Positions 309-48,266 of a stretch of DNA of 64,000 nt are shown here, piece by piece. How positions within the stretch are numbered: position 1 is the stretch's first letter; each line of letters opens with the position of its first letter. A program made the translations under genes and the position numbers. A model generated the notes under the pieces. It worked only from the letters and a program-made list of their open reading frames with translations, was not told where the DNA came from and searched no databases. The stretch is from Candidatus Aldehydirespirator sp. (GTDB lineage: Bacteria > Actinomycetota > Acidimicrobiia > Acidimicrobiales > Aldehydirespiratoraceae): the NCBI GenBank assembly GCA_965203635.1, contig OZ241903.1, positions 2,690,918 through 2,754,917 on the forward strand, given 5' to 3'.

Positions 309-1946
309 TCAGGACGGCCAGGCGCCCTCAGTGTCGTCGGCGAACTCCTGAGCGGTCTTGGAGCCCGACACGTAGTCGGTGCCCGACCGCCAGAACTCGC
401 CCGCTCCGACCTCGCCCGGCATCAGGTCGGAGGCGTCGAAGCGGAACGGGTTGGCGCTGACGAGGATCTCAGCGAGGCCCTGGTCGAACGAGGAGCTGTA
501 CAGCGACGTGTCATGGTCGCGGTTGGGCGACAGGAAGCCGCCCTTGTCCGACATGATGCGGGCGTTGGCGTACTCGGCTGTGCCGATGTACTCCAGCACC
601 GCCAGGGTCTCGGGCTTGTCGGTGAACGCCACGGCATGGGTCCCCGCTCCGAGCACCACCGTGCCGAACTCGTCGCTGATGGTCGGCAGGTAGAACACGT
701 TCACGTCGCCGTCGGGACCGAGCGACGATGCGCCGGCCTCGAGGTAGTGGGCGCCCGCGAAGTTGGCCTGGCGGTGCATCATGCACTCGCCGTTGAGGTG
801 GGCTGCCGCCATCTCGCGGAAGCTGCGCTGGGAGATCAGGTCGCGGCCGCCGCTCACGTTGCCCTCCGTGAACCAGATGCTGCCGACGAACTCGGCCACC
901 TCGACGACCCGGGGGTCGTTGAAGGGGATCTCGTGGCTGACCCACTGGTCGTACACGGCGGGCCCGTGGAGGCGGAGCATCATGTCCTCCATCCAGTCGG
1001 TGAAGGCCCAGCCGGTGGCCGCGCCGGACTCGATGCCGACGCACCACGGGGTGTGGCCGTTGCCCTTCATCTGCTCCATGAGCGCCTCGAGCTCGGCCCA
1101 GGACTGGGGGATCTCGTAGCCGTTGTCGGCGAAGCCCTGCGGGCTGTACCACACCAGGCTCTTCACGTCGCCCTTGTTGGGCACGCCGTAGACGTTGCCG
1201 CCGGTGGTGGCCAGGTCGAACCAGAACTGGTCGTAGGAGCCGCCGATGTTGGCCATGATCGAGTCGGGAATGGCGACCGCGTCGCCGGACTCGCCGAACT
1301 GGAGGATCCGGCCGGGCTGGGGGATTATGACGATGTCGGGCGGGTCGCCGGCCTCCACCGCCAGGTTCAGCTCGGTGGTGGCGTCGCGGGTGCCCGAGTA
1401 CCGGACGACGATCCCGGTGCGCTCACGCAGTGGCTCGAAACCGGCCAGGAAGCCCTCGGCCTCCGACCCGGTCTCGGGACCGAGAATGGTGACGACGCTG
1501 CCGGCCAGGCTCATCTCCATCTCCTGCATCGCCGCCTCGGCCTCGGCTGCTCTGGCGGCCGCCGCCTCGGCCTCGGCCTGAGCCTCGGCCATCTGGGCCT
1601 CGAGTTCGGCGACGACCTCTGGGTCTACCGCCCCCTCGCCCTCGGCCATGGCGGCCGCGAGCGCTGCCTCGGCGTCGGCTGCTCTGGCGGCCGCGGCGTC
1701 GGCTTCGGCCTGCGCTTCAGCGGCCGCGGCCTCCGCAGCCTCCGCCTCAGCGGCCGCGGCAGCGGCTTCAGCGGCCGCAGCCTCCGCCTCGGCCTCAGCG
1801 GCCGCAGCGTCGGCTTCTGCGGCTGCAGCCGCAGCGTCGGCGGCGCTGGTGTCCGCTACCGGCTCGTCGTCGCCGCATGCTGACGCCACGAGGGCGAGGC
1901 TGAGCAGCGCGCCGAGGATGAGCCATAGGCGCGAATGTGTCTTCAT
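309..1946 (-). CDS. Sugar ABC transporter substrate-binding lipoprotein with a long Ala/Glu spacer
   Basis: Signal peptide plus lipobox MKTHSRLWLILGALLSLALVASAC. This is followed by an Ala/Glu-rich spacer and then a family-1 solute-binding fold (WYSPQGFADNGYEIPQSWAELEALMEQMKGNGHTPWCVG...). GGGAGGGA lies just upstream of ATG 1946. The ORF-track start at 2000 is judged too early. Confidence 0.85.
   Translation of the reverse strand: MKTHSRLWLILGALLSLALVASACGDDEPVADTSAADAAAAAAEADAAAAEAEAEAAAAEAAAAAAEAEAAEAAAAEAQAEADAAAARAADAEAALAAAMAEGEGAVDPEVVAELEAQMAEAQAEAEAAAARAAEAEAAMQEMEMSLAGSVVTILGPETGSEAEGFLAGFEPLRERTGIVVRYSGTRDATTELNLAVEAGDPPDIVIIPQPGRILQFGESGDAVAIPDSIMANIGGSYDQFWFDLATTGGNVYGVPNKGDVKSLVWYSPQGFADNGYEIPQSWAELEALMEQMKGNGHTPWCVGIESGAATGWAFTDWMEDMMLRLHGPAVYDQWVSHEIPFNDPRVVEVAEFVGSIWFTEGNVSGGRDLISQRSFREMAAAHLNGECMMHRQANFAGAHYLEAGASSLGPDGDVNVFYLPTISDEFGTVVLGAGTHAVAFTDKPETLAVLEYIGTAEYANARIMSDKGGFLSPNRDHDTSLYSSSFDQGLAEILVSANPFRFDASDLMPGEVGAGEFWRSGTDYVSGSKTAQEFADDTEGAWPS
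1509..1844 (-). repeat. Low-complexity coding repeat (Ala/Glu/Asp, about 112 codons) inside the binding-protein gene
   Basis: AADAAAAAAEADAAAAEAEAEAAAAEAAAAAAEAEAAEAAAAEAQAEADAAAARAADAEAALAAAMAEGEGAVDPEVVAELEAQMAEAQAEAEAAAARAAEAEAAMQEMEMS. At the DNA level it is GCC/GCG/GAG-periodic. Confidence 0.85.
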
Positions 1947-1963
1947 TTCTTCCCTCCCAGGGA

Positions 1964-1977
1964 TGCAAACGTTTACA
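1964..1977. promoter_or_regulatory. LacI/GalR-type operator palindrome
   Basis: TGCAAACGTTTACA is a 14-bp near-perfect palindrome with a central CG (TGNAAACGTTTNCA). It lies 18-31 nt upstream of the binding-protein start and immediately downstream of the lacI-family gene. Confidence 0.6.
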
Positions 1978-2009
1978 GATTTGGAAGGTAGCGCGGCCAC
2001 CCCGCAGAA

Positions 2010-3020
2010 TCAACCCACTGGTGAAGTGGTCTCCCGCACCATCAGGGGCACATCCCAGGTGATGTCGCTGACGGGCTCGCCGTCGATCAGCGCCATCACG
2101 GTCTCCGCGGCCCGGACGCCCATCTCGTCCACCGCCTGGCGCATGGTGGTGAGCCCCAGCGCGCCGGCCAGATCATGGTCGTCGAAGCCGACCACGGAGA
2201 GGTCGCCGGGCGTGGCCAGACCGCGCGTCGCGGCGGCGCGCAGCACGCCGAAGGCCATCTCGTCGGACATGCAGAACACCGCGGTGGGCGGCCGTGCGCA
2301 TTCGAGGAGCCGCGACAGCGCGGCGGCGCCGCCGGTCGCGGTCCATTGGCCGCTGGTCGCCAGTTCGGGATCGACGGGCAGCCCTGCGGCTCGCAGGGCG
2401 TCCTCGTAGCCGAGGCGGCGCTGTTCGGGAACCGGCGTCGGGAGGTCCGGCAGATGCGGACCCGCTACGAGGCCGATGCGCTCATGGCCCAACTCGATGA
2501 GGTGCTCGACAGCTCGTCGGGCCGCAAGCCGGTTGTCGATCGTGATCGACGAGGCTCCGTCGAGCCGCTCCCCCACCGCCACGACCGGACGATCGAAGAA
2601 TGCCTCGGCGGAGTCCCCCTCGACGCTGACGAAGGTGTCGATGAGGACCAACCCGTCGACTCGCCGGCAGAAGGAGCGGGCATCCCTCAGGAAGCGCAGG
2701 CGGTCCCCGGGGGAGGTCATCATGGATACCAGCACGTCGTAGCCGGACTTGGCGAACACCGAGTTGATGCCGCCCAGGGCCCGGAACGGGAACCACGTCC
2801 CGAATTGGGGCGCCACCACCCCGATGGTCCAGGTCCGTCCCGACGCGAGGCGGGAGGCCTGGGGGTGGGCCTCGTACTCGAGCTCGGTGGCCGCCTCCAC
2901 CACCTTGGAGCGTGTCGCCGGCGCGACGTAGGGCAGATTGCGCAGGGCGCGGCTGACCGTGGCCACCGAGACTCCCGTCACCCTCGCGATGTCCTTGATG
3001 GTCGGACGGCTGTTCGACAC
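2010..3020 (-). CDS. LacI family transcriptional regulator
   Basis: N-terminal HTH IKDIARVTGVSVATVSRALRN followed by a periplasmic-binding-protein-like effector domain. GTG start. Confidence 0.9.
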   Translation of the reverse strand: MSNSRPTIKDIARVTGVSVATVSRALRNLPYVAPATRSKVVEAATELEYEAHPQASRLASGRTWTIGVVAPQFGTWFPFRALGGINSVFAKSGYDVLVSMMTSPGDRLRFLRDARSFCRRVDGLVLIDTFVSVEGDSAEAFFDRPVVAVGERLDGASSITIDNRLAARRAVEHLIELGHERIGLVAGPHLPDLPTPVPEQRRLGYEDALRAAGLPVDPELATSGQWTATGGAAALSRLLECARPPTAVFCMSDEMAFGVLRAAATRGLATPGDLSVVGFDDHDLAGALGLTTMRQAVDEMGVRAAETVMALIDGEPVSDITWDVPLMVRETTSPVG

Positions 3021-3044
3021 GGCTCGCGAACCTAATCGGTTCGG

Positions 3045-3755
3045 CTAGCCCATCCACTGACCGCCGTTGACGTCGATGGTGGCGCCGGTGATGTAGCCGG
3101 CGTGCGGTCCGCACAGGAACTCCACCATCGCGGCGAGGTCATCGGGGTCTCCCGGCGCGTCGCCGGGCACGGTGGCCAGAATGCGCTCGCGCCATGCGGG
3201 GTCGAGCGCCTGCCACATGGGCGTGTCGTGGGGTCCGGGGGCCACCGCGTTGACGGTGATGTTGTCGGCGGCGTGGTGCAGGGCCAGGAAACGGGTGAGG
3301 GTGATCAGCCCGCCCTTGCTGGCCGCGTAGGCCGGTCCCGACAGTGGCGATCCGCCGAAGCGGCCGTTGACCGACGCGATGTTGACGATCCTGCCCTCGC
3401 CGGCGGCCCGCATGCCCGCGATCACCTGGCGGGTGCACAGGTAGGCGCCGGTGAGGTTCACGTCGAGGATGCGGCGCCAGTCCTCGGGGCTCTCCTCCTC
3501 CACGCCCCCGGCGCCGGTGACGCCGGCGCTGTTGACCAGAACGGTGGGGTGGCCGTGCCGGTCGCGGATCGCGTCGAAGGCCGCGGTCACCGACCCGGCG
3601 TCGGATATGTCGCAGGCGATGGTCTCGACTGTGTCAGCGCTGGCGCCGGCCGCGGCATCGAGGCCGACGACCGCGTCGCCGCCCTCGCGGAGGCGCCTGC
3701 ACACCGCTGAGCCGATGGCGCCGGCCGCACCCGTCACCGCGGCCACCCGGCTCAT
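3045..3755 (-). CDS. Short-chain dehydrogenase/reductase (SDR)
   Basis: MSRVAAVTGAAGAIGS Rossmann motif, NIASV...YAASKGG catalytic motif and a typical C-terminal ITGATIDVNGG. ATG 3755 overlaps the glpK stop (ATGA). The 633-aa ORF-track version is an in-frame Arg/Gly/Pro-rich extension lying over glpK. Confidence 0.85.
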   Translation of the reverse strand: MSRVAAVTGAAGAIGSAVCRRLREGGDAVVGLDAAAGASADTVETIACDISDAGSVTAAFDAIRDRHGHPTVLVNSAGVTGAGGVEEESPEDWRRILDVNLTGAYLCTRQVIAGMRAAGEGRIVNIASVNGRFGGSPLSGPAYAASKGGLITLTRFLALHHAADNITVNAVAPGPHDTPMWQALDPAWRERILATVPGDAPGDPDDLAAMVEFLCGPHAGYITGATIDVNGGQWMG

Positions 3756-5236
3756 CCGCTCGCCCAGCCCTTGCTGCGGTCCACGGCGCGTTTCCAATCG
3801 GCATAGGCGGCATCGGCGGCGCCCCTCGGCCCGCTGGGCACAGCCTCGAAGTCGAGCTCCCAGTGACCGGAGACGGCCTCCAGCGACGGCCAGACGTCGG
3901 TGGCCAGTCCGGCCAGATAGGCGGCGCCGAGAGCGGTCGCCTCCTGGAGCTTGGGGCGCTGGACGGCCACCCCGAGCTGGTCGGCCTGGAGCTGCAGCAT
4001 GGAGTCCATCACCGATGCGCCCCCGTCGACCCGCAGGTTGCGAACCGGCGTGCCGGTGGCGGCCGCCATCGCCTCGACGACGTCGCGGGTCTGGTAGGTC
4101 ATGGCCTCCACCGCGGCTCGGGCGATCTCCGGCCGCCCGGTGCCCCGGGTGAGGCCGATGACGGCGCCGCGGGCGTAGGGATCCCAGTGCGGGCTGCCGA
4201 GACCGGCGAAGGCCGGGACCAGGAACACCCCGCCCGTGGAGTCGCACTGCTGGGCGAGTCCCTCGATCTCCGCGGCCTCCGCGATGATCCCGAGGCCGTC
4301 TCGAAGCCACTGGACGGCTGCTCCGGTGGCGAATATGGCTCCCTCCAGCGCGTACGCGAGGGTCGGACCCTGCGGGGTGTCCAGCAGCCAGGCGATCGTG
4401 GTGAGCAGGCCGTCGGCGGGCGCTGGCAGCTCGGCCCCCACGTTCATCAGCACGAACGAGCCGGTGCCGTAGGTGTTCTTGGCGTCGCCCGGCGCGAACG
4501 CAGCCTGTCCGAAGAGGGCGGCGTGCTGGTCGCCGGCGATGCCGGAGATCGGAACGCCCGCGCCGCAGGCGGCGTCCGGGCTCGTGGCCCCGAACGTTCC
4601 GCTGGAGGGCCGCACCTGCGGCAGGGCCTCGATCGGGACGCCGAACAGCGAGCACAGATCCGGGTGCCACCGCAGCGCCCCGATGTCGAACAGCATGGTG
4701 CGGCTGGCGTTGGTGGCGTCGGTGGCGTGGACCTCGCCGCCGGTCAGGTTCCACACGATCCAGCTGTCGACTGTTCCCAACGCGAGGTCGGGGCCGTCGG
4801 CTACTCCGCCCTCGGTGAGCATCCACTCGAGCTTGGAGGCCGAGAAGTACGGGTCGAGCACCAGCCCGGTGCACTCGCGCACCATGGGCAGCGCACCGTC
4901 CTGTTCCAGCTGCGTGCAGCGCGCCGCGGTGCGGCGGTCCTGCCACACGATGGCCCGATGGACCGGCTCGGAGCGCTCCCGGCTCCAGGCCACCACCGTC
5001 TCGCGCTGGTTGGTGACGCCGATGGCAGCCGGCGCCTCATCCAGGCTGCCGACCACCTCGCCGAGCGTCGACTGCACCGCGGCCCAGATCTCGGCCGCGT
5101 CGTGCTCGACACGCCCCGGCATCGGGAAGTACTGGGGGAATTCACGCTGGGCCGACGCCACCATCCGCCCGGAGTCGTCGAAGGCGATGGTGCGCACGCT
5201 GGTCGTGCCGGCGTCGATGGCCAGTACAACGGTCAT
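3752..5236 (-). CDS. glpK: Glycerol kinase
   Basis: Full-length FGGY kinase: MTVVLAIDAGTTSVRTIAFD, NQRETVVAW, IVWQDRRTA, GDQHAALFGQ, LRVDGGASVMDSMLQLQADQLG. The start is taken at MTVV. Confidence 0.95.
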   Translation of the reverse strand: MTVVLAIDAGTTSVRTIAFDDSGRMVASAQREFPQYFPMPGRVEHDAAEIWAAVQSTLGEVVGSLDEAPAAIGVTNQRETVVAWSRERSEPVHRAIVWQDRRTAARCTQLEQDGALPMVRECTGLVLDPYFSASKLEWMLTEGGVADGPDLALGTVDSWIVWNLTGGEVHATDATNASRTMLFDIGALRWHPDLCSLFGVPIEALPQVRPSSGTFGATSPDAACGAGVPISGIAGDQHAALFGQAAFAPGDAKNTYGTGSFVLMNVGAELPAPADGLLTTIAWLLDTPQGPTLAYALEGAIFATGAAVQWLRDGLGIIAEAAEIEGLAQQCDSTGGVFLVPAFAGLGSPHWDPYARGAVIGLTRGTGRPEIARAAVEAMTYQTRDVVEAMAAATGTPVRNLRVDGGASVMDSMLQLQADQLGVAVQRPKLQEATALGAAYLAGLATDVWPSLEAVSGHWELDFEAVPSGPRGAADAAYADWKRAVDRSKGWASG

Positions 5237-5247
5237 GCCGCGCCATT

Positions 5248-5294
5248 CCCGCTCTTGTTCGCTGCGCTCACGGGCCGCTCGGGCCACGGCCTCG
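5248..5294 (+). repeat. 47-nt intergenic repeat, family C, copy 1
   Basis: CCCGCTCTTGTTCGCTGCGCTCACGGGCCGCTCGGGCCACGGCCTCG lies between the glpD stop and the glpK start. Its reverse complement recurs at 8920..8966 with one mismatch. Confidence 0.85.
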
Positions 5295-5315
5295 CTCGGC
5301 CGGTTGCGAAGGCTC

Positions 5316-6932
5316 TCATGACTTGCTCCCCGTCCACTCGGCCTCTGGCCCGAACAGGAGACTCTCGGCGCGTTCCACTCCGGGATCGCGGCTCAGCGTC
5401 TCGGGCGTCTCGAGCATGGCGAGCATGGTACGGCGCCTCAGGAAGTCGTCCATGGACAGGATGTGCTCGTGGCGGGCCATGACCATGACCTCCGCGGCCG
5501 AGCACTCGACGAGGTCGCTGAGGGGCTCGCCCAGCTCGGGCGTCTCCTCCACCAGGTCGGTGACCTCAAGGGCCCGGCGGCCGTGCCGGCGCCACAACCT
5601 CGCCGCCGCGGGCTCGTCGATGCCGGCCCGGACGGCGCTGCGATGGAAGCGGTCCTGCACGCCGGCAGGCGGTTCGCCGTACCAGGCACGGTCCGGGACC
5701 CCGGGTGCCAGTCCACACTTGCGGGCCGCGGTCACCACCTCCTGTCCCACGTTGAGACAGTCGCTCAGCTTGCCCCCGAGGATGGAGATGGTCGCCCGCT
5801 GCTGGTCTGCCTCCACGGCGTGGCGGCGGGACAGCTCGGTCCAGTCGCGGTCGGTGTCCTCGCTCTCGTCGACCACCAGGGCTCGGACGCCGCAGCGGTA
5901 CGCGATCACGTCGTCCTGGAGGAGTGGCCGGGGCAGCCGGAGCCGGGCGTTGGCCTGTTCGAGCAGGAAGTCGCGATCGTCGTGGGTTATCGACGCCTCC
6001 GCTTCCTCGACCCGGGTGTCGGTCGTGCCGATGAGGGACCGGTGGCCCATCGGGATGACGTAGAACAGCCGCTGATCGTCGTCGAAGAACGCCAGCACCC
6101 GCCCCGATTCGGTCACCTGGGGCACGACGATGTGCGCTCCCTTCGAGTAGCAGAGGGCCTGGCGGAGGGCGGTGCCGGTGAGCGCGGCTAGTTCGGTGGC
6201 CCGCGGGCCGGCCGCATTGACCAGCACCGCGGCCTCCACGGTGTGCCGGTCGCCGGTCAGCCGGTCGATCACCTCGGCCCGCCAGCCGCCGCCGGCCCGC
6301 TCGGCGCCGTCGAGCCGCATTCTGGACACCGCGACCGCTCCGCTGTCGACGGCGTCGAGCAGGAGCTGGAGGACGAAGCGGGCGTCGTTGTCGGCCAGCA
6401 GGTAGTCGGAGTACTCGACGGCGCCCTGGACGTCGGCCGAATCGATGGTGGGCTCGGCCGTCGCCAGCGAACGGGACGAGAGGAGCCGGGGACGGCCGGT
6501 CGCGAACCGCCCCAGGGCCCAGTAGGCGTGCGCTCCCAGTGCCGCGTAGGCGGGCGAGTACGGCGATGTGGATCCCAGCGCGGCCAGGAACCGGACCTCC
6601 TGGACGCGGCTGGCGTACGAGCGGGCCAGCAGATTGCGGGAGCGGCACAACCCCGCGACCAGCGCCACGTCGTAGGTCTGCAGGTACTTGAAGCCGCCCC
6701 AGATGAGGTTGGACGACTCCTGGCTCACCCCCGAGGCGAAGTCCTCGGAGTCGATCAGCGCGACGCGCAGCCCGTGGTTGGCCAGGGCCAGAGCCGAGAT
6801 GGCTCCGTTGATGCCCCCGCCGACGATGAGCACGTCATGATCTCGCTCCGTCAGGCGCTCCAGGTTCCCGTCTCTCACCGCGGCTGTGTGGGGCGCACCG
6901 TTGGAGGGCGCAGCCGGGCCAGGAGCGCTCAT
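5316..6932 (-). CDS. glpD: FAD-dependent glycerol-3-phosphate dehydrogenase
   Basis: DVLIVGGGINGAISALALANHG FAD fold, SQESSNLIWGGFKYL, and a C-terminal helical GlpD-type domain. ATG 6932 overlaps the IclR stop (ATGA). The 1028-aa ORF-track version is a spurious upstream extension. Confidence 0.9.
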   Translation of the reverse strand: MSAPGPAAPSNGAPHTAAVRDGNLERLTERDHDVLIVGGGINGAISALALANHGLRVALIDSEDFASGVSQESSNLIWGGFKYLQTYDVALVAGLCRSRNLLARSYASRVQEVRFLAALGSTSPYSPAYAALGAHAYWALGRFATGRPRLLSSRSLATAEPTIDSADVQGAVEYSDYLLADNDARFVLQLLLDAVDSGAVAVSRMRLDGAERAGGGWRAEVIDRLTGDRHTVEAAVLVNAAGPRATELAALTGTALRQALCYSKGAHIVVPQVTESGRVLAFFDDDQRLFYVIPMGHRSLIGTTDTRVEEAEASITHDDRDFLLEQANARLRLPRPLLQDDVIAYRCGVRALVVDESEDTDRDWTELSRRHAVEADQQRATISILGGKLSDCLNVGQEVVTAARKCGLAPGVPDRAWYGEPPAGVQDRFHRSAVRAGIDEPAAARLWRRHGRRALEVTDLVEETPELGEPLSDLVECSAAEVMVMARHEHILSMDDFLRRRTMLAMLETPETLSRDPGVERAESLLFGPEAEWTGSKS

Positions 6933-9881: not shown

Positions 9882-10746
9882 AGCTGCCTCGCCTGCCCCA
9901 CCAGGTCAGACCGCCGATCACGACCAGGGTCATGGCGAACAGGATCAGCGACACCGCGCTGGCCAGCCCCTGCTCGTGCTGGCGGAACAGGATGCGCCAC
10001 ACCAGCATGGGCATCGTCTCGGTCTCGCGGACCGGCCCGCCCTGCGTCATGGCGAACACCAGGTCGAAGTTGCGCAGCGAGTTGATGGCGATCAGCGACA
10101 GCACCACCGTCGTGATGGGCCGTAGCAGCGGCAGGATCACCCGGCGGAACACCTGGAATTGGCCGGCGCCGTCGACCCTGGCCGCCTCGACCAGCTCTCC
10201 GGGGATGGACGTGAGCCCGGCCAGGTAGAGGATCATGGACAGCACGGCCTGCTGCCACGCCCAGGCGATGAACACTGCCCACAGGGCGGTGGAGCGGTTG
10301 GCCAGCCAGGCGTTCTCGAGGCTCTCGAGCCCGACCAGGCCCAGAAGCTGGTTGATCAGGCCGTCGCCGGGCTGGTAGATCCAGATCCACACCTGGCCGA
10401 CCACCACCAGGCTGATGGAGATCGGCACGAACAGCGCCGACTTCATGATCGCCGCGAAGCGGGTGTTGGCTTGCAGCATCATGGCGATGCCCAGTCCCAG
10501 CGCGGGCGGGATCAGCGCGCCGAACAGCGTCCACACCAGCGTGATGCGGATCGACTTTCGAACGTGCTGGTTGGTGAAGGCCTCGACGAAGTTGTCGAAG
10601 CCGATCCACTGGCTGGTCTGCCCCAGGATGTTGGCGTCGGTGAAGCTGAGCCGCAGGGCCATGGCCGTGGGCACCACCACGATGGCGGTGAACAGCAGTA
10701 TGGGCGGTCCCATGAAGAGGATGGCCCAGCGGGTTGTCGGCCTCAT
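9871..10746 (-). CDS. Carbohydrate ABC transporter permease (MalF-like)
   Basis: Multi-TM protein with the EAA loop EAARVDGAGQFQVFRRVILPLLRPI. It overlaps the downstream permease by 11 nt. Confidence 0.9.
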   Translation of the reverse strand: MRPTTRWAILFMGPPILLFTAIVVVPTAMALRLSFTDANILGQTSQWIGFDNFVEAFTNQHVRKSIRITLVWTLFGALIPPALGLGIAMMLQANTRFAAIMKSALFVPISISLVVVGQVWIWIYQPGDGLINQLLGLVGLESLENAWLANRSTALWAVFIAWAWQQAVLSMILYLAGLTSIPGELVEAARVDGAGQFQVFRRVILPLLRPITTVVLSLIAINSLRNFDLVFAMTQGGPVRETETMPMLVWRILFRQHEQGLASAVSLILFAMTLVVIGGLTWWGRRGSYVD

Positions 10747-19380: not shown

Positions 19381-20451
19381 CTAGCTGGGCCGCGGCGGAG
19401 CGATCCGGTCGAGGGCCTCGACGGCCTCGACCACGATGCGGTCGATCAGCTCGGCGCACGTGGGCAGGTCGTCGACGACGCCCACGCACTGGCCGGTGGG
19501 CAGGACGCCGGCATCGACATCGCCGTCCACCATGGTGGCTCGGGTGAGCATGGGGGCGTTGGCCGCCATCGCCATCTGGCTCCAGGTCAGTCCCTGGCTG
19601 CGGCGCATGGCCAGCCCCTCTCGCAGCATCTCCGGGACCGACATGCCGGTGACGCCCCGGAACCGCCAGGCGTTGGCCAAGGCCCGCACCATCCGGGTGA
19701 GTCGGGCCGACTCCAGCGATTCGACCAGGCGGGTGCGGATCACCCGCTGCGGCTTGCCGTCGATGCTGCTCGACACCACGGTTCCGGTGACCGGCGTGCC
19801 GAGGTAGACCGCCTTGACCGTGTCGGGCACCTTCGACTCGGCGGTGAGCAGGAAGCGGGTGCCCATGGCCACACCGTCGGCGCCCCACGCCAGGGCCGCG
19901 GCCAGGCCCCGCCCGTCGTGGAAGCCGCCCGCGGCGATCACCGGCACATCCACCGCGTCGAGCACCTGGGGCAGCAGCAGGGAAGTGGGGATTGAGCCGG
20001 TGTGGCCGCCGCCTTCCCCGCCCTGGCACAGGATGACGTCCGCACCGAGTTCGGCCATCTTGGTGGCGTGCCGGCGGGCGCCCACCGTCGGCATGACCAG
20101 CACACCGCCGTCCCGCAGCCGCTGCACCACATGAGCCGGAGGGGGACCGGCGAAGCTGGCCACCCGCACGCCCGCGTCCACCAGGCGGTCCGCCCGGGCG
20201 TCCAGGTCGGCGGCGTCGGGGCGCAGGTTCACCCCGAAGGGCTGATCGGTGCGGGACCGGACCTCGCCGATGGCGGCGTCCATCTCGTCGAGGGTCATGG
20301 TGGCCGAGGCCAGGATCCCGAGTCCGCCCGCTTCGGCAGTGCCGGTCACCAGCGACGGGCCGGCCACCCATCCCATCCCGGTCTGCACGATCGGGTAGTC
20401 GACCCCGAACAGCTCCGTGACCTGGGTCCGGAGCCGCTGGTCGACACTCAC
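19381..20451 (-). CDS. Nitronate monooxygenase / FMN-dependent enoyl reductase-like (NMO family)
   Basis: YPIVQTGMGWVAGPSLV, QGGEGGGHTG, PVIAAGGFHDGRGLAAALAWGADGVAMGTRF. Confidence 0.85.
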   Translation of the reverse strand: MSVDQRLRTQVTELFGVDYPIVQTGMGWVAGPSLVTGTAEAGGLGILASATMTLDEMDAAIGEVRSRTDQPFGVNLRPDAADLDARADRLVDAGVRVASFAGPPPAHVVQRLRDGGVLVMPTVGARRHATKMAELGADVILCQGGEGGGHTGSIPTSLLLPQVLDAVDVPVIAAGGFHDGRGLAAALAWGADGVAMGTRFLLTAESKVPDTVKAVYLGTPVTGTVVSSSIDGKPQRVIRTRLVESLESARLTRMVRALANAWRFRGVTGMSVPEMLREGLAMRRSQGLTWSQMAMAANAPMLTRATMVDGDVDAGVLPTGQCVGVVDDLPTCAELIDRIVVEAVEALDRIAPPRPS

Positions 20452-20575
20452 GGCTGCACCCTACCGGCCGCTCCCGATCGCCTCGGCTGGCTCGCGCCGC
20501 CGTCCCCGGCGTCGTGCGGCCCGCCTATCCTGCGGATGCCTCTACAAACGGTGCGCACGGAAGGGGGTGGACGCG

Positions 20576-21610
20576 ATGGCCCGAAGGCTCACAGAGTTCA
20601 GCCACGGCGCTGGTTGAGCCTGCAAGATCGCTCCCGGCGATCTCGCGCGCGTGGTGCGCGACCTGACCCCTGATCCCCCGCCTGAGCTGGTTGTCGGCCT
20701 GGCCACCGGCGACGACGCCGCGGTGTGGCGGATCGCCCGCGGGCGGGCCCTGGTGTTCACCGCCGACTTCATCACGCCGGTGGTGGACGACGCGCGCACC
20801 TGGGGCCGCATCGCGGCCACCAACGCGGTGTCCGACGTGTACGCCATGGGCGGGCGGCCCCTGCTGGCGCTGAACCTGGTGGCCTGGAACTCCGAGGAGC
20901 TGTCCAACGACCTGCTCGCCGAGGTGCTGGCCGGCGGCGAGGACGCCGCCCGGGCCGGCGGTTTCGTGGTGGGCGGCGGCCACACGGTCGACGATCCCGA
21001 GCCGAAGTACGGGATGGCCGTGGTGGGCGAGGTCGACCCGCGGCGCATGCTCACCAACACCGGTCTGCGGCCCGGCAACGCGCTGGTGCTCACCAAGCCG
21101 CTGGGCTCGGGGGTGATCTCGACCGCCATCAAGCGGGATGAAGCCCACGCCGAGGTGGTGGATCGAGCTGTCGCGGAGATGACCCGGTCCAACGCCACCG
21201 CGGCCACGGCCGCGATGCGTCACGGCGCCACCGCCGCCACCGACGTCACCGGGTTCGGCCTGCTGGGCCACGGCCTGCGCATGGCCCAGGAGTCGGGTGT
21301 CGACCTGGAGATCTCGGTGGGCGAGGTTCCGATAATCGCGGGCGCCCGGGGGCTGGCCGCTCTGGGCGTGGTCCCCGGCGGCACCCAGCGCAACCTCGAC
21401 TGGGTGTCGCCTCATCTCGATACCGGTGACGCAAGCGACTCGTCGGTGACTCTGCTGGCCGACGCTCAGACCTCGGGAGGGCTGCTGTTGGGAATGGTCA
21501 GCCGCGACGCCGGCCTGGCCGTCGTCACCGAGCTGAGGTTCGCCGGCCACGAGGCCGCCATCATCGGCGAGGTCACCGAGGGCTCCGGCCGCATCCGCCT
21601 CCAACCCTGA
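20576..21610 (+). CDS. selD: Selenide, water dikinase (selenophosphate synthetase) with an in-frame TGA read as selenocysteine
   Basis: ATG 20576 gives MARRLTEFSHGAG, then TGA (20615..20617), then ACKIAPGDLARVV. This runs in-frame into ORF 20651..21610 (GDDAAVW, RIAATNAVSDVYAMGG, TDVTGFGLLGH, QTSGGLL). The TGA aligns with the catalytic Cys of the E. coli SelD SHGAGCGCK loop. Confidence 0.9.
20625..20643 (+). promoter_or_regulatory. SECIS-like hairpin downstream of the selD UGA
   Basis: AGATCGC-TCCCG-GCGATCT is a perfect 7-bp stem with a 5-nt loop, starting 8 nt after the UGA. Confidence 0.5.
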
Positions 21611-21724: not shown

Positions 21725-22528
21725 TCAGTCGAGGAGGTCGGGCTGCTCGCGGGCTATCTCGGTGTAGAGGGGCTGGAACGTGAACCACATGGCCAGGCCC
21801 GAGCCGACCATGGAATAGGTGTGGCGGGCGACTTCGTCACCGATGTCGATCGGGTCGCCGGCGGCCTCGGCCAGCAGCTGGGAATGGCAGGCCCGGTCCA
21901 TGGCCACGAACGCGCCCGCTGCCGCGTCCACCGAGGCGCCCACCGTCAGCAGGCCGTGGTTCTGGAGGATGGCGGCCTTGCAGTCGCCCAGCGCGGCCGC
22001 GATGCGCTTGCCCTCGTCCAGCTCCATCACCACGCCGCTGTAGCCGTCGAAGATGACGTGGTCGTCGTAGAAGGCGCAGGCGTCCTGGGTCAGCGGCCGC
22101 AGCGGCCGTCCCAGCGCGGAGAACGACTTGCCGTGCATCGAGTGGCTGTGGGCCGCGGCCACCACGTCGGGGCGGGCCGCGTGGATCTGGGAGTGGATGG
22201 CGAAAGCGGCGCCGTTGAGGAGCGCGCCCTCACCGTCGACCATGTTGCCGTCGGAGTCCACCCGGATCAGGCTCGAGGCCGTGATGTGGGAGAACGGCAC
22301 GCCCCACGGGTTGACCCAGAACGTCTCGGGATCCTCGGGATCGCGCACAGTGACGTGGCCGGCCGCGCCCACCGCGCCGTCCTCGAACCCGAGCTTGGCG
22401 AAGATCCGGTAGGTGGCGGCCAGGCGCTGCTTGCGGTGCAGCCGCTCCTCCTCCACCGTGTCGAAGGTGGGCAGGTACCACAGCGAGTCCCGATCGGGTC
22501 CGCTGCCTTCGTTCTGCTCGGAGCTCAT
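21725..22528 (-). CDS. Class II aldolase/adducin family protein
   Basis: GHVTVRDPEDPETFWVNP, IHSQIHAARPDVVAAAHSHS (metal His cluster), LQNHGLLTVG. Confidence 0.85.
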   Translation of the reverse strand: MSSEQNEGSGPDRDSLWYLPTFDTVEEERLHRKQRLAATYRIFAKLGFEDGAVGAAGHVTVRDPEDPETFWVNPWGVPFSHITASSLIRVDSDGNMVDGEGALLNGAAFAIHSQIHAARPDVVAAAHSHSMHGKSFSALGRPLRPLTQDACAFYDDHVIFDGYSGVVMELDEGKRIAAALGDCKAAILQNHGLLTVGASVDAAAGAFVAMDRACHSQLLAEAAGDPIDIGDEVARHTYSMVGSGLAMWFTFQPLYTEIAREQPDLLD

Positions 22529-34522: not shown

Positions 34523-37268
<2,746 letters not shown>

Positions 37269-44843: not shown

Positions 44844-45885
44844 GGCTCCGCCTCGAGCCGAGCAGCGTTCCGGTCAGTCCCCTGGGCGCTCCCAGCACTA
44901 TCGCGAGCAGGCCGACGCCGACAAAGAACTGCCAGTTGTCGGTGACGTCTATCGAGAGCTCCTCCAGCAGGAACAGCGCGCCGGCGCCGATCACGCCGCC
45001 GATCAGGCTGCCCAGCCCGCCAACGATCACCATGACCAGCAACTCGCCCGACTCGGTCCACTCGGCGAACGACGGCGACAGGAACTGCGACTCGGTCACG
45101 GCCATGGCGCCGGCCAGCGAGGTGATGGCGGCGGACAGGGCGAAGGCGGCCAGCCGGTACCGGTAGGTCTGGTAGCCGAGCGCGGCCATGCGCGCCATGT
45201 TGCTGCGGCAGCCTCGCACCACCCGGCCGAACGGTGATCTGACCACCAGGTTCAGGATCACCGTGAAGGCCACCAGCACGGCGAAACACACGTAGAAGAA
45301 GACGGTGTCGTCCGACGCGTCGAGCGGTCCGATGGCTCGGCGGGCCGCGAACAGCCCGACGCCGTCGTCGCCGCCGTAGATCTCGAGCGCGTTGAACAGG
45401 AAGTAGATCATCTGGTTGAACGCCAGGGTCGCCATGATGAAGTAGACGCCCTTGGTGCGCAGGCTCAGCCCGCCGATCACCAGCCCCAGCAGCGCGCCGA
45501 CAACCGTGGCCAGGGGCCAGGTCACGAGCGCCTGGTCCGTTCCGGGAATCCCGAGGAGCCGGGAACCGTCCAGGCTGTGGTATGTCAGCGCGCCCGCGGT
45601 GTATGCGCCGGCGCCGAGGAACGTCGCGTGGCCCAGGCTGACCATCCCCCCGTATCCCATGACGAAGTCGAGACTCATCGCGGCCAGCCCGAAGATGACC
45701 ACCCGGGTGAGCACGGTCACCAGATAGCCCCGACCGCCGGCATCGACCCACAGCGGCGCCACCGAAAGCAGCGCCAGGAATACCACGGTCAGCCCGATGT
45801 GCCATCGGGAGGGGCCCCACGCCCAGAATCCGAGGCGGATGCCGGTGCGCCCGGGGCTCGACCGGGCGGTCTGCGGATCACTCAT
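44836..45885 (-). CDS. livM: Branched-chain amino acid type ABC transporter permease (LivM-like)
   Basis: Polytopic membrane protein with DFVMGYGGMVSLGHATFLGAGAY, typical of LivM. Confidence 0.9.
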   Translation of the reverse strand: MSDPQTARSSPGRTGIRLGFWAWGPSRWHIGLTVVFLALLSVAPLWVDAGGRGYLVTVLTRVVIFGLAAMSLDFVMGYGGMVSLGHATFLGAGAYTAGALTYHSLDGSRLLGIPGTDQALVTWPLATVVGALLGLVIGGLSLRTKGVYFIMATLAFNQMIYFLFNALEIYGGDDGVGLFAARRAIGPLDASDDTVFFYVCFAVLVAFTVILNLVVRSPFGRVVRGCRSNMARMAALGYQTYRYRLAAFALSAAITSLAGAMAVTESQFLSPSFAEWTESGELLVMVIVGGLGSLIGGVIGAGALFLLEELSIDVTDNWQFFVGVGLLAIVLGAPRGLTGTLLGSRRSHD

Positions 45886-46795
45886 CGGCCAGGCCGAACA
45901 GGCCGTTGGGCTTGACTACCAGCACGACGACCATCACCAGGTAGATGCTGGCCGACGCCACCGAGGCGCCGGCCGTGGCCGCGGTGCTCGGGTCGACGAA
46001 CCGCCCGAAGAGGTCGGGCAGGTAGGTGCGGGCCCAAGTGTCGGCCAGACCCAGCATCAGCGAGCCGTACAGGGCTCCCTTGAGCGATCCGATGCCGCCG
46101 ACCACGATCACCACGAAGCTCAGGATCAGGAAGTGATCGCCGATGCCCGATTCCACCGACAGGAACGGCGCGGCCACCACGCCGGCCAGTCCCGCGAGGC
46201 CCGCTCCTACCGCGAACACCAGGGTGTAGAGCAGCCGGACGTTCACTCCGAACGCGCCCAGCAGTTCCCGGTGCGTCCGGCCGGCCCGTATCCACATGCC
46301 GACCCGGGTGCGTTCCACCAGCAGGTGCAGGAAGACGATGACCGCGATCCCGGTCGCGGTGATGGCCAGCCGGTAGGCCGGGTAGGGCAGGCCGGGCAAC
46401 ACCGGCACCGTGCGATCCAGGAACGCGGGGGCCGAGACGCTCCTCGGCGTCGCGCCCCAGACCATCTGCACAGCCTGGTTGGCGATCAGCACCAGCGCGA
46501 ACGTGGCCAGGACTTGATACAGGTGATCGCGGTCGTACAGGCGCCTGATCAGGCCCAACTCGACGATCAGGCCGGCAACCGCCGCCCCGGCTATGCCGGC
46601 CAGCAGGGCCAGCAGGTAGTTGCCGGTACGGCCCCCCACGTCCGCGGCCACGAACGCCCCGACCATGAACAACGAGCCATGGGCCAGGTTGATGATGTTC
46701 ATGATCCCGAATATCAGCGTGAGCCCCGCTGAGACCATCAACAGGGTGAAACCCAGCTGGAGCCCGTTCAGGGTCTGCTCAATGAACAGGTTCAT
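45878..46795 (-). CDS. livH: Branched-chain amino acid type ABC transporter permease (LivH-like)
   Basis: MNLFIEQTLNGLQLGFTLLMVSAGLTLIFGIMNIINLAHGS is a typical LivH N-terminus. Confidence 0.9.
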   Translation of the reverse strand: MNLFIEQTLNGLQLGFTLLMVSAGLTLIFGIMNIINLAHGSLFMVGAFVAADVGGRTGNYLLALLAGIAGAAVAGLIVELGLIRRLYDRDHLYQVLATFALVLIANQAVQMVWGATPRSVSAPAFLDRTVPVLPGLPYPAYRLAITATGIAVIVFLHLLVERTRVGMWIRAGRTHRELLGAFGVNVRLLYTLVFAVGAGLAGLAGVVAAPFLSVESGIGDHFLILSFVVIVVGGIGSLKGALYGSLMLGLADTWARTYLPDLFGRFVDPSTAATAGASVASASIYLVMVVVLVVKPNGLFGLADE

Positions 46796-46827
46796 GCTGT
46801 CGCCGCGCCGATAGTCGGGAATGGATC

Positions 46828-46868
46828 GGGCCGGTCCGCCAGAGCGCGAGCATCCGGCGGACCGGCCC
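46828..46868 (-). terminator. Intercistronic 13-bp perfect hairpin after the binding-protein gene
   Basis: GGGCCGGTCCGCC-N15-GGCGGACCGGCCC, between the binding-protein stop (46884) and the livH start (46795). Confidence 0.55.
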
Positions 46869-46883
46869 GAACGTAGCCGACGT

Positions 46884-48266
46884 TCAGCCGGTCAAGGGAC
46901 AATCGGAGGCGTAGGCGTCCGCGTGATCCTCCAGGATCGTGGCCACGATCGTGTTGGTCAGGTCTCCGTGGACCGGGTCCCTCACAACCTCGAGGAGGTA
47001 CCAGTCCTGGATCGGGTGATTGTTGGTGTTGAAGCTGAAGTTGCCGCGGACGCTGTCGAAGTCGGCCGCCTTGAGCGCCTCGCGCATGCCGGCCGTGTCG
47101 CCGGCGGAGCCCCCGTTGGCGTCCAGCGCGGAGATCAGCAGCAGCGCGGTGTCGTAGCCCTGGGCCGCGTAGGACGTCGGGGTGCTGCCGTACTTCTCGC
47201 GGTAGGCCTCGACGAAGATCCGGTTGGCCTCGTTGTCCATGTCGGGTGCCCAGAACGAGGAGTTGACCAGGCCCAGGGCCGCGTCGCCGATGGCGTCCAC
47301 GAGGAACTCGTCGAACGATGACACCGGACCGAATATCGGAATCTCAAGGCCGGACGCCTGGTACTGCTGGATGAAGGCGATGCCCATCCCGCCCGGGTAG
47401 AAGAAGTACACCGCATCGGGGTCCGCTTCCCGGATCTGAGCGATGGCCTGGGCGTAGTCGGTCGCCCCCAGCTCGGTGTAGATCTCCTCTTCGACGTCGC
47501 CGTAGAACCGCTTGAAGCCGGCCACCATGTCGTGGCCAGCCTGGTAGTTCGGGGCCAGCGCGACCGCGCTCTCGTAGCCTTCGTCGGCCACGTATACGCC
47601 GATCGCCTCGGACTGGTTGTCGTTCTGCCAGGACGCCACGAAGTAGTTCTCGTGACACTGGGCGCCCGCGAACGGCGACGGTGCCGCGTTGGGGCTGATG
47701 TAGATGGTTCCCGCGTTGACGACCTGCGGCACGACCGCGCCGGCAACGTTCGAGAAGACGATCCCGGTCATCACGTCGACCTCGTCCCTGGTGAGCATGC
47801 GGTCGGCCAGCTGCTGGGCGAAGGCCGGATCGCGGCCGTCGTCCTCGACAACGAGATCGAGCTCGTAGCGGCCGTCGATCTCGAAGGCCAGCTGGAAGGC
47901 GTCGCGGATTCCCTCGCCGAGGTACGCCGCCCCGGTCGAGAGGGTCGTGATCATGCCGACCTTGACCTTCCCGCCGACCACCTCGGGCTCTTCGGCCTCT
48001 TCGGGCTCCTCGGCCGGCTCGGGCTCGGCCTCCTCGGCCGGTTCAGGGGCCTCTTCGGGCTCCTCGGCCGGCTCAGGCTCGGGCGCAGCCTCGGGCTCCT
48101 CGGCCGGCTCGGGCTCGGGCGCTGCCTCTGCCGGCTCGGCCGGTGTCGCATCCTCGCTGTCATCGTCGCCGCAGGCGGCGGCCAGGATGCCGAATGTGGC
48201 CACAATCGCCACCGCACGCCAAAGCCACCATGACCGCGTGCGGGTCAAGTTCGTGGTTCCTCCCAT
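46884..48266 (-). CDS. LIV-family ABC substrate-binding lipoprotein with an acidic Pro/Glu spacer
   Basis: Lipobox ILAAAC, a PEPEPAEE-type spacer, then a type-I periplasmic binding fold (KVKVGMITTLSTGAAYLG...). Confidence 0.9.
   Translation of the reverse strand: MGGTTNLTRTRSWWLWRAVAIVATFGILAAACGDDDSEDATPAEPAEAAPEPEPAEEPEAAPEPEPAEEPEEAPEPAEEAEPEPAEEPEEAEEPEVVGGKVKVGMITTLSTGAAYLGEGIRDAFQLAFEIDGRYELDLVVEDDGRDPAFAQQLADRMLTRDEVDVMTGIVFSNVAGAVVPQVVNAGTIYISPNAAPSPFAGAQCHENYFVASWQNDNQSEAIGVYVADEGYESAVALAPNYQAGHDMVAGFKRFYGDVEEEIYTELGATDYAQAIAQIREADPDAVYFFYPGGMGIAFIQQYQASGLEIPIFGPVSSFDEFLVDAIGDAALGLVNSSFWAPDMDNEANRIFVEAYREKYGSTPTSYAAQGYDTALLLISALDANGGSAGDTAGMREALKAADFDSVRGNFSFNTNNHPIQDWYLLEVVRDPVHGDLTNTIVATILEDHADAYASDCPLTG
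47979..48170 (-). repeat. Low-complexity Pro/Glu/Ala coding repeat (about 64 codons) with DNA-level tandem units
   Basis: GDDDSEDATPAEPAEAAPEPEPAEEPEAAPEPEPAEEPEEAPEPAEEAEPEPAEEPEEAEEPE. The unit CTTCGGGCTCCTCGGCCGGCTC(G/A)GGCTCGG recurs. Confidence 0.8.

Follow-up and report, generated by a model that had tools for sequence, protein, structure and literature searches.

The question raised by this locus is whether an in-frame TGA in selD, the gene for selenophosphate synthetase, ends the gene or is a codon of it. The stretch of DNA that was analyzed, hereafter the window, comprises 64,000 nucleotides (64 kb) of contig OZ241903.1 from Candidatus Aldehydirespirator sp., a member of the Acidimicrobiia. 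Within it, a 66-residue open reading frame (ORF; 20417..20617) terminates in ...MARRLTEFSHGAG at the TGA 20615-20617, and a 319-residue ORF of the identical frame begins at GTG 20651. Eleven open codons bridge the TGA and this GTG (ACKIAPGDLARVV). A preliminary description of the sequence had taken the two ORFs for the parts of one selenoprotein gene, split by the ORF caller and encoding, when joined, 344 residues. The coordinates and the translation bear out the joined frame, and the comparison of 46 genes given below supports the reading of selD as a selenoprotein gene. We consider it highly probable that 20576-21610 encodes a SelD of the selenocysteine (Sec) type, in which the UGA is decoded as predicted Sec under the direction of tandem hairpins that lie downstream of it.

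The joined protein, with the UGA modeled as Cys, matched the selD equivalog family TIGR00476 with 366.5 bits (cutoff 125) and NF002098 with 344.7 bits (cutoff 299). Its residues 4-338 were aligned with the crystal structure of Escherichia coli SelD (3u0o; E = 9e-74). The second-best match to a structure was the SelD of Aquifex aeolicus (2yye), which in its native form is a selenoprotein. The N- and C-terminal AIR-synthase-like domains (PF00586 and PF02769) are precomputed for homologues that are 80-99% identical to the SelD of the window. On the strength of these matches, the product of 20576-21610 is SelD, a full-length member of the family. The 3u0o alignment places the TGA on Cys17 of E. 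coli SelD in RLTQYSHGAGCGCK and the next Lys on Lys20, both of which are catalytic in the E. coli enzyme. The loop reads SHGAG-U-ACK in the window and SHGAG-C-GCK in E. coli, with the Lys three residues past the U or the C. The assignment of the TGA to the catalytic Cys of the SHGAGCGCK loop, made in the preliminary description, is borne out by this alignment.

The database homologues of the window SelD were considered as the best 120 (clusters), at 80-99% identity. They span only 88-93% of the query and are nearly all 303-319 residues long; as called, they are devoid of the N-terminus because the gene callers stop at the UGA. One homologue of 507 residues (P0005) was considered as a read-through or Cys variant and was rejected, as its start is truncated like that of the others and its extra length is a run-on at the C-terminus. 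The relatives used for comparison were 80 SelD loci from a scan of GTDB species-representative genomes. The closest of these is on the chromosome OZ241894.1 of a Candidatus Aldehydirespirator metagenome-assembled genome (MAG), at 98% SelD identity, followed by other Acidimicrobiales. When the joined protein was aligned with the Sec- and Cys-type SelDs of the 80 loci, TGA and TGC were found to share one column. TGA occupies the Cys17 codon in 47 of the 80 loci, including all above approximately 59% identity; beyond that set, the TGA-type loci are two from Anaeromyxobacter, one from a member of the Gemmatimonadaceae and a single further locus. Cys is encoded by the other 33 loci (TGT in one, TGC in the rest), and in 12 of these it is part of the loop variant AHGGG-C-ACK.

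The quantitative analyses were performed with the window and 45 TGA-type loci (46 genes); one locus, L071, was left out, its variant motif having been missed by the pattern. In these 46 genes the Sec codon is TGA throughout, with no instance of TAA, TAG or any sense codon, and the flanking peptide SHGAG-U-xCK is invariant, with codons that vary synonymously. The frame remains open for approximately 330 codons 3' of the TGA. In one locus (L021, from position 10031) the selD frame is open for 624 codons past the Sec-UGA and not for approximately 330; the product of this MAG may be a fusion of SelD to another protein, or the stop codon may have been lost.

In a neighbor-joining tree, 42 Acidimicrobiia SelDs of the TGA type, the window included, constitute one clade, the sister of which is a Cys-type Iamiaceae sequence. 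The TGA is fixed across this clade of at least 42 species-level genomes, at 59-98% protein identity. Outside the Acidimicrobiia clade, Sec and Cys alternate among close relatives, as in L076 (TGA) and L054 (TGC) of the Gemmatimonadales, which are sister SelDs of opposite state. This pattern suggests repeated switching between Sec and Cys, or the transfer of selD together with its selenocysteine insertion sequence (SECIS).

The preliminary description had reported one hairpin past the TGA, AGATCGC-TCCCG-GCGATCT at 20625..20643, and its sequence was confirmed. It is not single, however. A second hairpin (20644-20660) adjoins it directly and, as discussed below, is the better fit to the consensus; we refer to the two as hairpins 1 and 2 in the order of their distance from the TGA. 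The repeat arms of hairpin 1 are at 20625-20631 and 20637-20643, with 7 nucleotides (nt) between the TGA and the stem, and the stem can be extended by a U-G pair to 8 bp, which leaves a CCC loop. As a single sequence, the 54-nt hairpin region of this GC-rich DNA folds no better than shuffles of the same composition (z = -1.06). The case for the hairpins is therefore wholly a comparative one.

The comparison was made on an alignment of positions -15 to +60 around the TGA, which is free of gaps in all 46 sequences. Standard pairs are formed in 94.2% of the cells of the two hairpins combined, and 9 of the 15 pairs have changed on both sides (5/8 in hairpin 1 and 4/7 in hairpin 2). The covariation score is 0.285, compared to 0.111 +/- 0.010 in column shuffles (none of 500 reached 0.285), and it was at most 0.066 when the partners were slid by 1-3 columns. 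RNAalifold recovered both helices independently. We also evaluated the pairing against a synonymous null, in which the codons for the unchanged peptides were redrawn from the usage of each gene. Under this shuffling, pairing is 76.9 +/- 1.8% for hairpin 1, against 92.7% in the genes; for hairpin 2 it is 61.6 +/- 2.1%, against 96.0%. For both hairpins together the shuffles give 69.8 +/- 1.4%, and none of the 500 draws exceeded 73.6%. One pair of hairpin 1 is mismatched in 13 of the 46 sequences.

The nature of the coupled changes is of note. In hairpin 1, a non-synonymous change is coupled across the stem: AGAUCGC/GCGAUCU, with AUC..GAU encoding Ile..Asp, as opposed to AGCUCGC/GCGAGCU, with CUC..GAG encoding Leu..Glu. 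Coupled changes in hairpin 2 are GCG..CGC (Ala..Arg), GCU..AGC (Ala..Ser) and GCC..GGC (Ala..Gly). The pair at the base of hairpin 2 is GC in 33 genes, CG in 11, AU in one and UA in one, and its middle pair is GC in 35, UA in five and CG in four. In 21 selD genes of the Cys type, these columns are paired at 51%, with covariation not above that of shuffles, and the two hairpin segments fold on average at -2.6 and -3.9 kcal/mol. As judged from these alignments, both hairpins are under selection as RNA structures, and this holds for the TGA-type genes alone, since their pairing exceeds the synonymous null and is missing from the Cys-type genes. The distant TGA-type genes (L062 and L081 of Anaeromyxobacter, and those of the Gemmatimonadales) keep both hairpins, with compensatory changes.

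Which of the two hairpins would be bound by SelB can be approached through the consensus for the bacterial SECIS (bSECIS). In the Zhang and Gladyshev 2005 model, as relayed in PMC13188914, the apical loop has 3-9 nt and the upper stem 4-16 bp, a G is in loop position 1 or 2 and is usually followed by G or U, the loop is 16-37 nt from the UGA, and the minimum free energy (MFE) is -7.5 kcal/mol or lower. Hairpin 2 falls within the consensus on all four criteria. Its loop is of 3 nt (5 nt in some sequences) on a G+C-rich stem of 7-8 bp, reads GUN in all 46 genes and is located 33 nt past the UGA (20618-20650), and its MFE is at or below -7.5 kcal/mol in 41 of the 46 genes. It is also retained in Anaeromyxobacter and the Gemmatimonadaceae, whose TGA-type genes are separate in the phylogeny. 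The selD bSECIS of the Clostridiales, as described in Supplement S6 of Mariotti et al. 2015 (PMC4561486), is likewise a tandem, with stem2 downstream of stem1 and not nested within it, and stem2 alone fits the consensus. The likeness is to the text description of that element only, and the window sequence is unrelated to it in composition. With this precedent and the agreement with the consensus as grounds, we assign the predicted SelB-binding element to hairpin 2 with moderate confidence.

Two points count against this assignment. The invariant G and U of the hairpin 2 loop also begin a Val codon, which the Cys-type genes conserve as well, and hairpin 1 is nearer than hairpin 2 to the spacing found in E. 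coli fdhF. Hairpin 1 begins 7 nt past the UGA, near the approximately 11-nt spacing of the minimal fdhF element. It is possible, if rather unlikely, that hairpin 1 is the SelB-bound SECIS, alone or as one composite with hairpin 2, which in this reading would be the accessory. Hairpin 1 is conserved, it covaries and its pairing is above that of the synonymous shuffles; its 3-nt loop, 8-bp stem and energy of -9.5 kcal/mol are within the bSECIS limits for loop size, stem size and MFE. Furthermore, a subset of bacterial SECIS elements lies outside the consensus model (PMC13188914). Against this alternative, hairpin 1 pairs less consistently than hairpin 2, with the mismatches mentioned above, and reaches -7.5 kcal/mol in only 32 of the 46 genes. 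In the tandem layout described for the Clostridiales (PMC4561486), the stem that fits the consensus is the second. The loop of hairpin 1 is CCN in 45 of the 46 genes, at variance with the loop-G rule, and is 15 nt past the UGA (20618-20632), just outside the range of 16-37 nt. As to the proposal in the preliminary description that this hairpin is a SECIS at the expected spacing, the hairpin is conserved and covaries, but its loop does not conform, and its spacing is borderline.

With hairpin 2 as the preferred SelB-binding element, the following sequence of events can be envisioned. Translation would begin at ATG 20576, and the ribosome at the UGA 20615-20617 would insert Sec rather than terminate. 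The Sec would be placed in the glycine-rich catalytic loop SHGAG-U-ACK, at the site of E. coli Cys17. Recoding would be driven by the RNA structure within the coding sequence (CDS) just 3' of the UGA, namely hairpins 20625-20643 and 20644-20660. Hairpin 2 would serve as the SelB-bound SECIS, and hairpin 1 would probably either position hairpin 2, as a spacer or helper module, or hinder release factor 2 (RF2). The sequence on the 5' side of the UGA may also contribute. The Gly codon directly 5' of the UGA (20612-20614 in the window) is GGT in 39 of 46 Sec-type and in one of 21 Cys-type selD genes; GGT constitutes only 19% of the Gly codons elsewhere in these genes. This excess of GGT, in a comparison that takes no account of phylogeny, suggests that a U adjoining the UGA on its 5' side is selected for.

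The residue inserted at UGA 20615-20617 is, we infer, Sec; the point that counts against this is that no Sec machinery was found in the window or near selD in its closest relatives. Neither selA nor selB was found in the 64-kb window with E. coli SelA and SelB as tblastn queries, and tRNA-Sec was absent from it according to both ARAGORN and Rfam at the gathering threshold. At that threshold Rfam gave no match anywhere in the window, and no bacterial SECIS family was among the Rfam matches. The three genes were absent as well from the flanks of +/-10 kb in the closest relatives (L002-L016). A homology search with the SelA of L017, an Ilumatobacteraceae contig of the Sec-SelD clade, had only Ilumatobacter-like sequences among the best 120 of at least 8000 matches, and SelA searches that included the high-G+C representative P0244 as query had other lineages only among the matches listed; such listings are no evidence that SelA is missing from the genus.

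The failure to find the machinery in the window would favor the decoding of the UGA as a residue other than Sec, such as Cys carried by a Sec-like tRNA or Trp through near-cognate decoding, and selenoproteins would then not be required. Natural reassignment of Sec codons to Cys has been reported for some bacteria. We consider such decoding very unlikely here. The element downstream of the UGA fits the consensus for a SelB-dependent bSECIS, and in the clade member L017 the TGA-type selD is followed directly by selA and selB (at 993-5413; the contig is of 6.3 kb, with no tRNA-Sec on it). We know of no purpose for SelD where selenium is not used, which also counts against a residue other than Sec. 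The databases contain many pairs of selA and selB from Acidimicrobiia. In related Acidimicrobiia a Sec-type selD is accompanied by the complete Sec machinery: all 84 complete genomes of Actinomarina, a member of the same class, contain selA, selB, selC and selD, and selD is itself the gene of a selenoprotein in about half of the genomes (bioRxiv 10.64898/2026.04.03.716425). The same preprint, with reference to Peng et al. 2016, states that sequenced Actinobacteria do not have the selenouridine trait, and SelD in the lineage of the window is therefore expected to serve Sec synthesis.

The arrangement of the genes differs between the two types of selD, as compared in L017, L060, L071, L072, L063, L080, L043 and L085. 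In the Cys-type Actinomycetota, tRNA-Sec, selA and selB are directly beside selD. In the Sec-type clade of the Acidimicrobiia selD is usually unlinked, the order selD-selA-selB being found only in L017, and the selD of the window stands alone, unlinked to selA, selB and selC. We infer that these three genes lie elsewhere in the genome of the window.

The reading of the UGA as Sec presupposes a start upstream of it. An in-frame start codon is present 13-24 codons upstream of the TGA in all 46 TGA-type genes, and it is exactly 13 codons upstream, as in the window, also in L002-L006, L008, L009, L011, L014, L018-L020 and L039. The gene callers, in the window and in all of the best 120 homologues, selected a start downstream of the UGA (GTG 20651 or the next GTG), which would produce a SelD of 318-319 residues without the glycine-rich loop and would leave the 13 upstream codons untranslated. 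This is extremely unlikely. The ten codons 5' of the TGA encode RLTxFSHGAG in 46 of 46 genes, and they have undergone synonymous turnover, with six Arg, five Leu and four Thr codons and with Ser encoded by AGC, AGT, TCC and TCG. By this measure, the segment 5' of the UGA is under purifying selection at the protein level, as is the downstream side. The codon at 20651 is GTC in 20 genes, GTG in 17, GTT in eight and GTA in one, which is no start codon in 29 of the 46, and the truncated SelD would be devoid of the residues that align with E. coli Cys17 and Lys20. The start at GTG 20651, which the preliminary description had named as the case that would speak against it, was accordingly rejected.

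That selD is a pseudogene, created by a TGC-to-TGA nonsense mutation of a single base, is a negligible prospect in view of the fixation of the TGA in at least 42 species-level genomes at 59-98% identity, the intact downstream frames of approximately 330 codons, the purifying selection on both sides, and a covarying RNA structure that is specific to TGA-type genes and follows the TGA codon; the conserved upstream peptide, with its synonymous turnover, excludes it as it does the downstream start.

The third-position G+C content (GC3) of the 12 codons 5' of the UGA (20579-20614) is 0.67, compared to 0.91 for the whole of selD. Because of this low GC3, composition-based gene finders miss the N-terminal segment of selD, as did our own scans for TGA. 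Those composition-based scans for other TGA-interrupted genes returned ordinary gene ends only; they missed selD itself and so are no valid test.

The coordinates of selD, its elements and its neighbors are collected in Table 1. Scans for promoter and terminator consensus sequences around selD found none.

Table 1. Features of the selD locus and of its surroundings in the window.
Feature	Position	Strand	Remark
Complete selD CDS	20576..21610	+	344 residues including predicted Sec at residue 14; stop 21608-21610
ATG start codon of selD	20576..20578	+	13 codons 5' of the Sec codon
Tentative Shine-Dalgarno-like sequence GGAAGGGGG	20559..20567	+	8 nt 5' of the ATG; assigned by eye from the sequence
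In-frame TGA, predicted Sec codon	20615..20617	+	Aligns with E. coli Cys17; TGA in 46/46
Hairpin 1	20625..20643	+	Stem 20625-20632 with 20636-20643; loop CCC 20633-20635; MFE -9.5 kcal/mol
Hairpin 2	20644..20660	+	Stem 20644-20650 with 20654-20660; loop GUG 20651-20653; MFE -12.0 kcal/mol
GTG taken by the ORF track as start of the 319-residue ORF	20651..20653	+	Internal Val codon; apical loop of hairpin 2
Nitronate monooxygenase	19384-20451	-	Upstream neighbor of selD
SRAP peptidase, HIT protein, CDP-alcohol phosphatidyltransferase		-	Upstream of selD
Class II aldolase	21728-22528	-	Downstream neighbor of selD
MFS transporter, three short-chain dehydrogenases			Downstream of selD

The rest of the window includes genes for a branched-chain amino-acid ABC transporter, IlvD, a kynureninase-like protein, KatG and an aldehyde dehydrogenase. 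The catalase-peroxidase (KatG-like, with two peroxidase domains) is encoded at 34836-37265 on the plus strand, and its presence is consistent with an aerobic lifestyle of a Sec-using actinobacterium. A near-perfect G+C-rich inverted repeat of 18 bp (46828-46868, in the minus-strand transcript), a single copy in the window, follows the stop of a gene for a periplasmic binding protein (46887-48266) and precedes the start of the first permease gene of the branched-chain amino-acid ABC transporter (45881-46795); both genes are on the minus strand. The RNA of 46800-46900 on the minus strand folds at -65.3 kcal/mol (z = -6.3 compared to shuffles), and the hairpin may be an intercistronic element that stabilizes the mRNA or acts as an attenuator. 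The sole prediction of ARAGORN in the window was a 90-nt tRNA-Arg(cct) at 48003-48092, which was considered as tRNA-Sec-like because of its length and was dismissed as a false positive, being a coding repeat with no tRNA support from Rfam. This segment is a GGCTC/GGCCTC-rich repeat that encodes a stretch rich in Glu, Pro and Ala at the N-terminus of the binding protein.

The kind of system described here is already well known, and Sec-type SelD is textbook knowledge. The need of such an enzyme for selenophosphate in its own synthesis is, to our knowledge, inherent to all Sec-type SelD/SPS2 enzymes. The statement of the preliminary description that Sec-containing SelD is known in some bacteria is in keeping with the literature, in which Sec is encoded by approximately 19% of the SelD genes of prokaryotes, invariably at one position (PMC4561486), and few selenoprotein families of bacteria are as widespread as SelD (PMC9312934). 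The Sec-type SelD/SPS of Haemophilus influenzae and A. aeolicus, and those surveyed by Mariotti et al. 2015 (PMC4561486), belong to the same family, TIGR00476, and share with the window the UGA at the Cys17 equivalent, the arrangement U-x-x-K, the SECIS within the CDS directly 3' of the UGA and the truncation of the gene by the callers. The selD bSECIS models of that study are for Clostridiales, Campylobacter, Deltaproteobacteria and Pasteurellales; unlike these, the window is from a high-G+C genus of the Acidimicrobiia, with no published model. Compared to the bSECIS consensus (PMC13188914), the window has an additional conserved and covarying hairpin, without the loop G, which takes up the interval from the UGA to the hairpin that fits the consensus.

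Sec-type SelD has already been reported within the Acidimicrobiia. The Actinomarinales (bioRxiv 10.64898/2026.04.03.716425) are of the same class, and they too have a selenoprotein SelD and UGA-containing ORFs that are missed by the callers. Their genomes are marine, of approximately 1.1 Mb and low in G+C, with selD of the Sec type in approximately half, in contrast to the clade of the window, whose genomes are of approximately 4 Mb and high in G+C, with the TGA in every sampled member. That preprint used eukaryote-type Rfam SECIS models only, and the bacterial SECIS is not described in it (bioRxiv 10.64898/2026.04.03.716425). The Cys-type SelDs of Actinoplanes, Blastococcus, Pedococcus and others are orthologues at 54-58% identity, with the loop AHGGG-C-ACK. 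Unlike selD in the window, the Cys-type selD of the Actinomycetota has TGC, has no conserved hairpins at the matching columns and adjoins tRNA-Sec, selA and selB.

What is specific here is the lineage, the fixation of the TGA across a clade of Acidimicrobiia, the tandem-hairpin model for an actinobacterial selD SECIS and the preference for GGU before the UGA. We propose, tentatively, a wider interpretation of these features. An order-wide clade of Acidimicrobiia may have Sec fixed in SelD, none of the 42 sampled species having reverted to Cys, together with a recoding signal of two modules. The hairpin nearer the UGA would have a role separate from that of the SelB-binding hairpin (RF2 block or ribosome pausing, for example), and the strongly preferred U 5' of the UGA would be a third element of context. 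This would be a lineage-specific variant, undescribed for the Actinomycetota.

The finding leaves the current understanding of Sec decoding unchanged, and its consequences are for the annotation and for the organisms. The corrected gene model is 20576-21610, with predicted Sec at residue 14, and the best 120 homologue clusters, as called, are likewise without the catalytic N-terminus. The tandem-hairpin alignment of 46 sequences could seed a covariance model for selenoprotein genes in the high-G+C Actinomycetota. The Sec-type SelD marks Candidatus Aldehydirespirator and related Acidimicrobiales as likely users of selenoproteins, and therefore other UGA-containing genes in these genomes have probably been mis-called.

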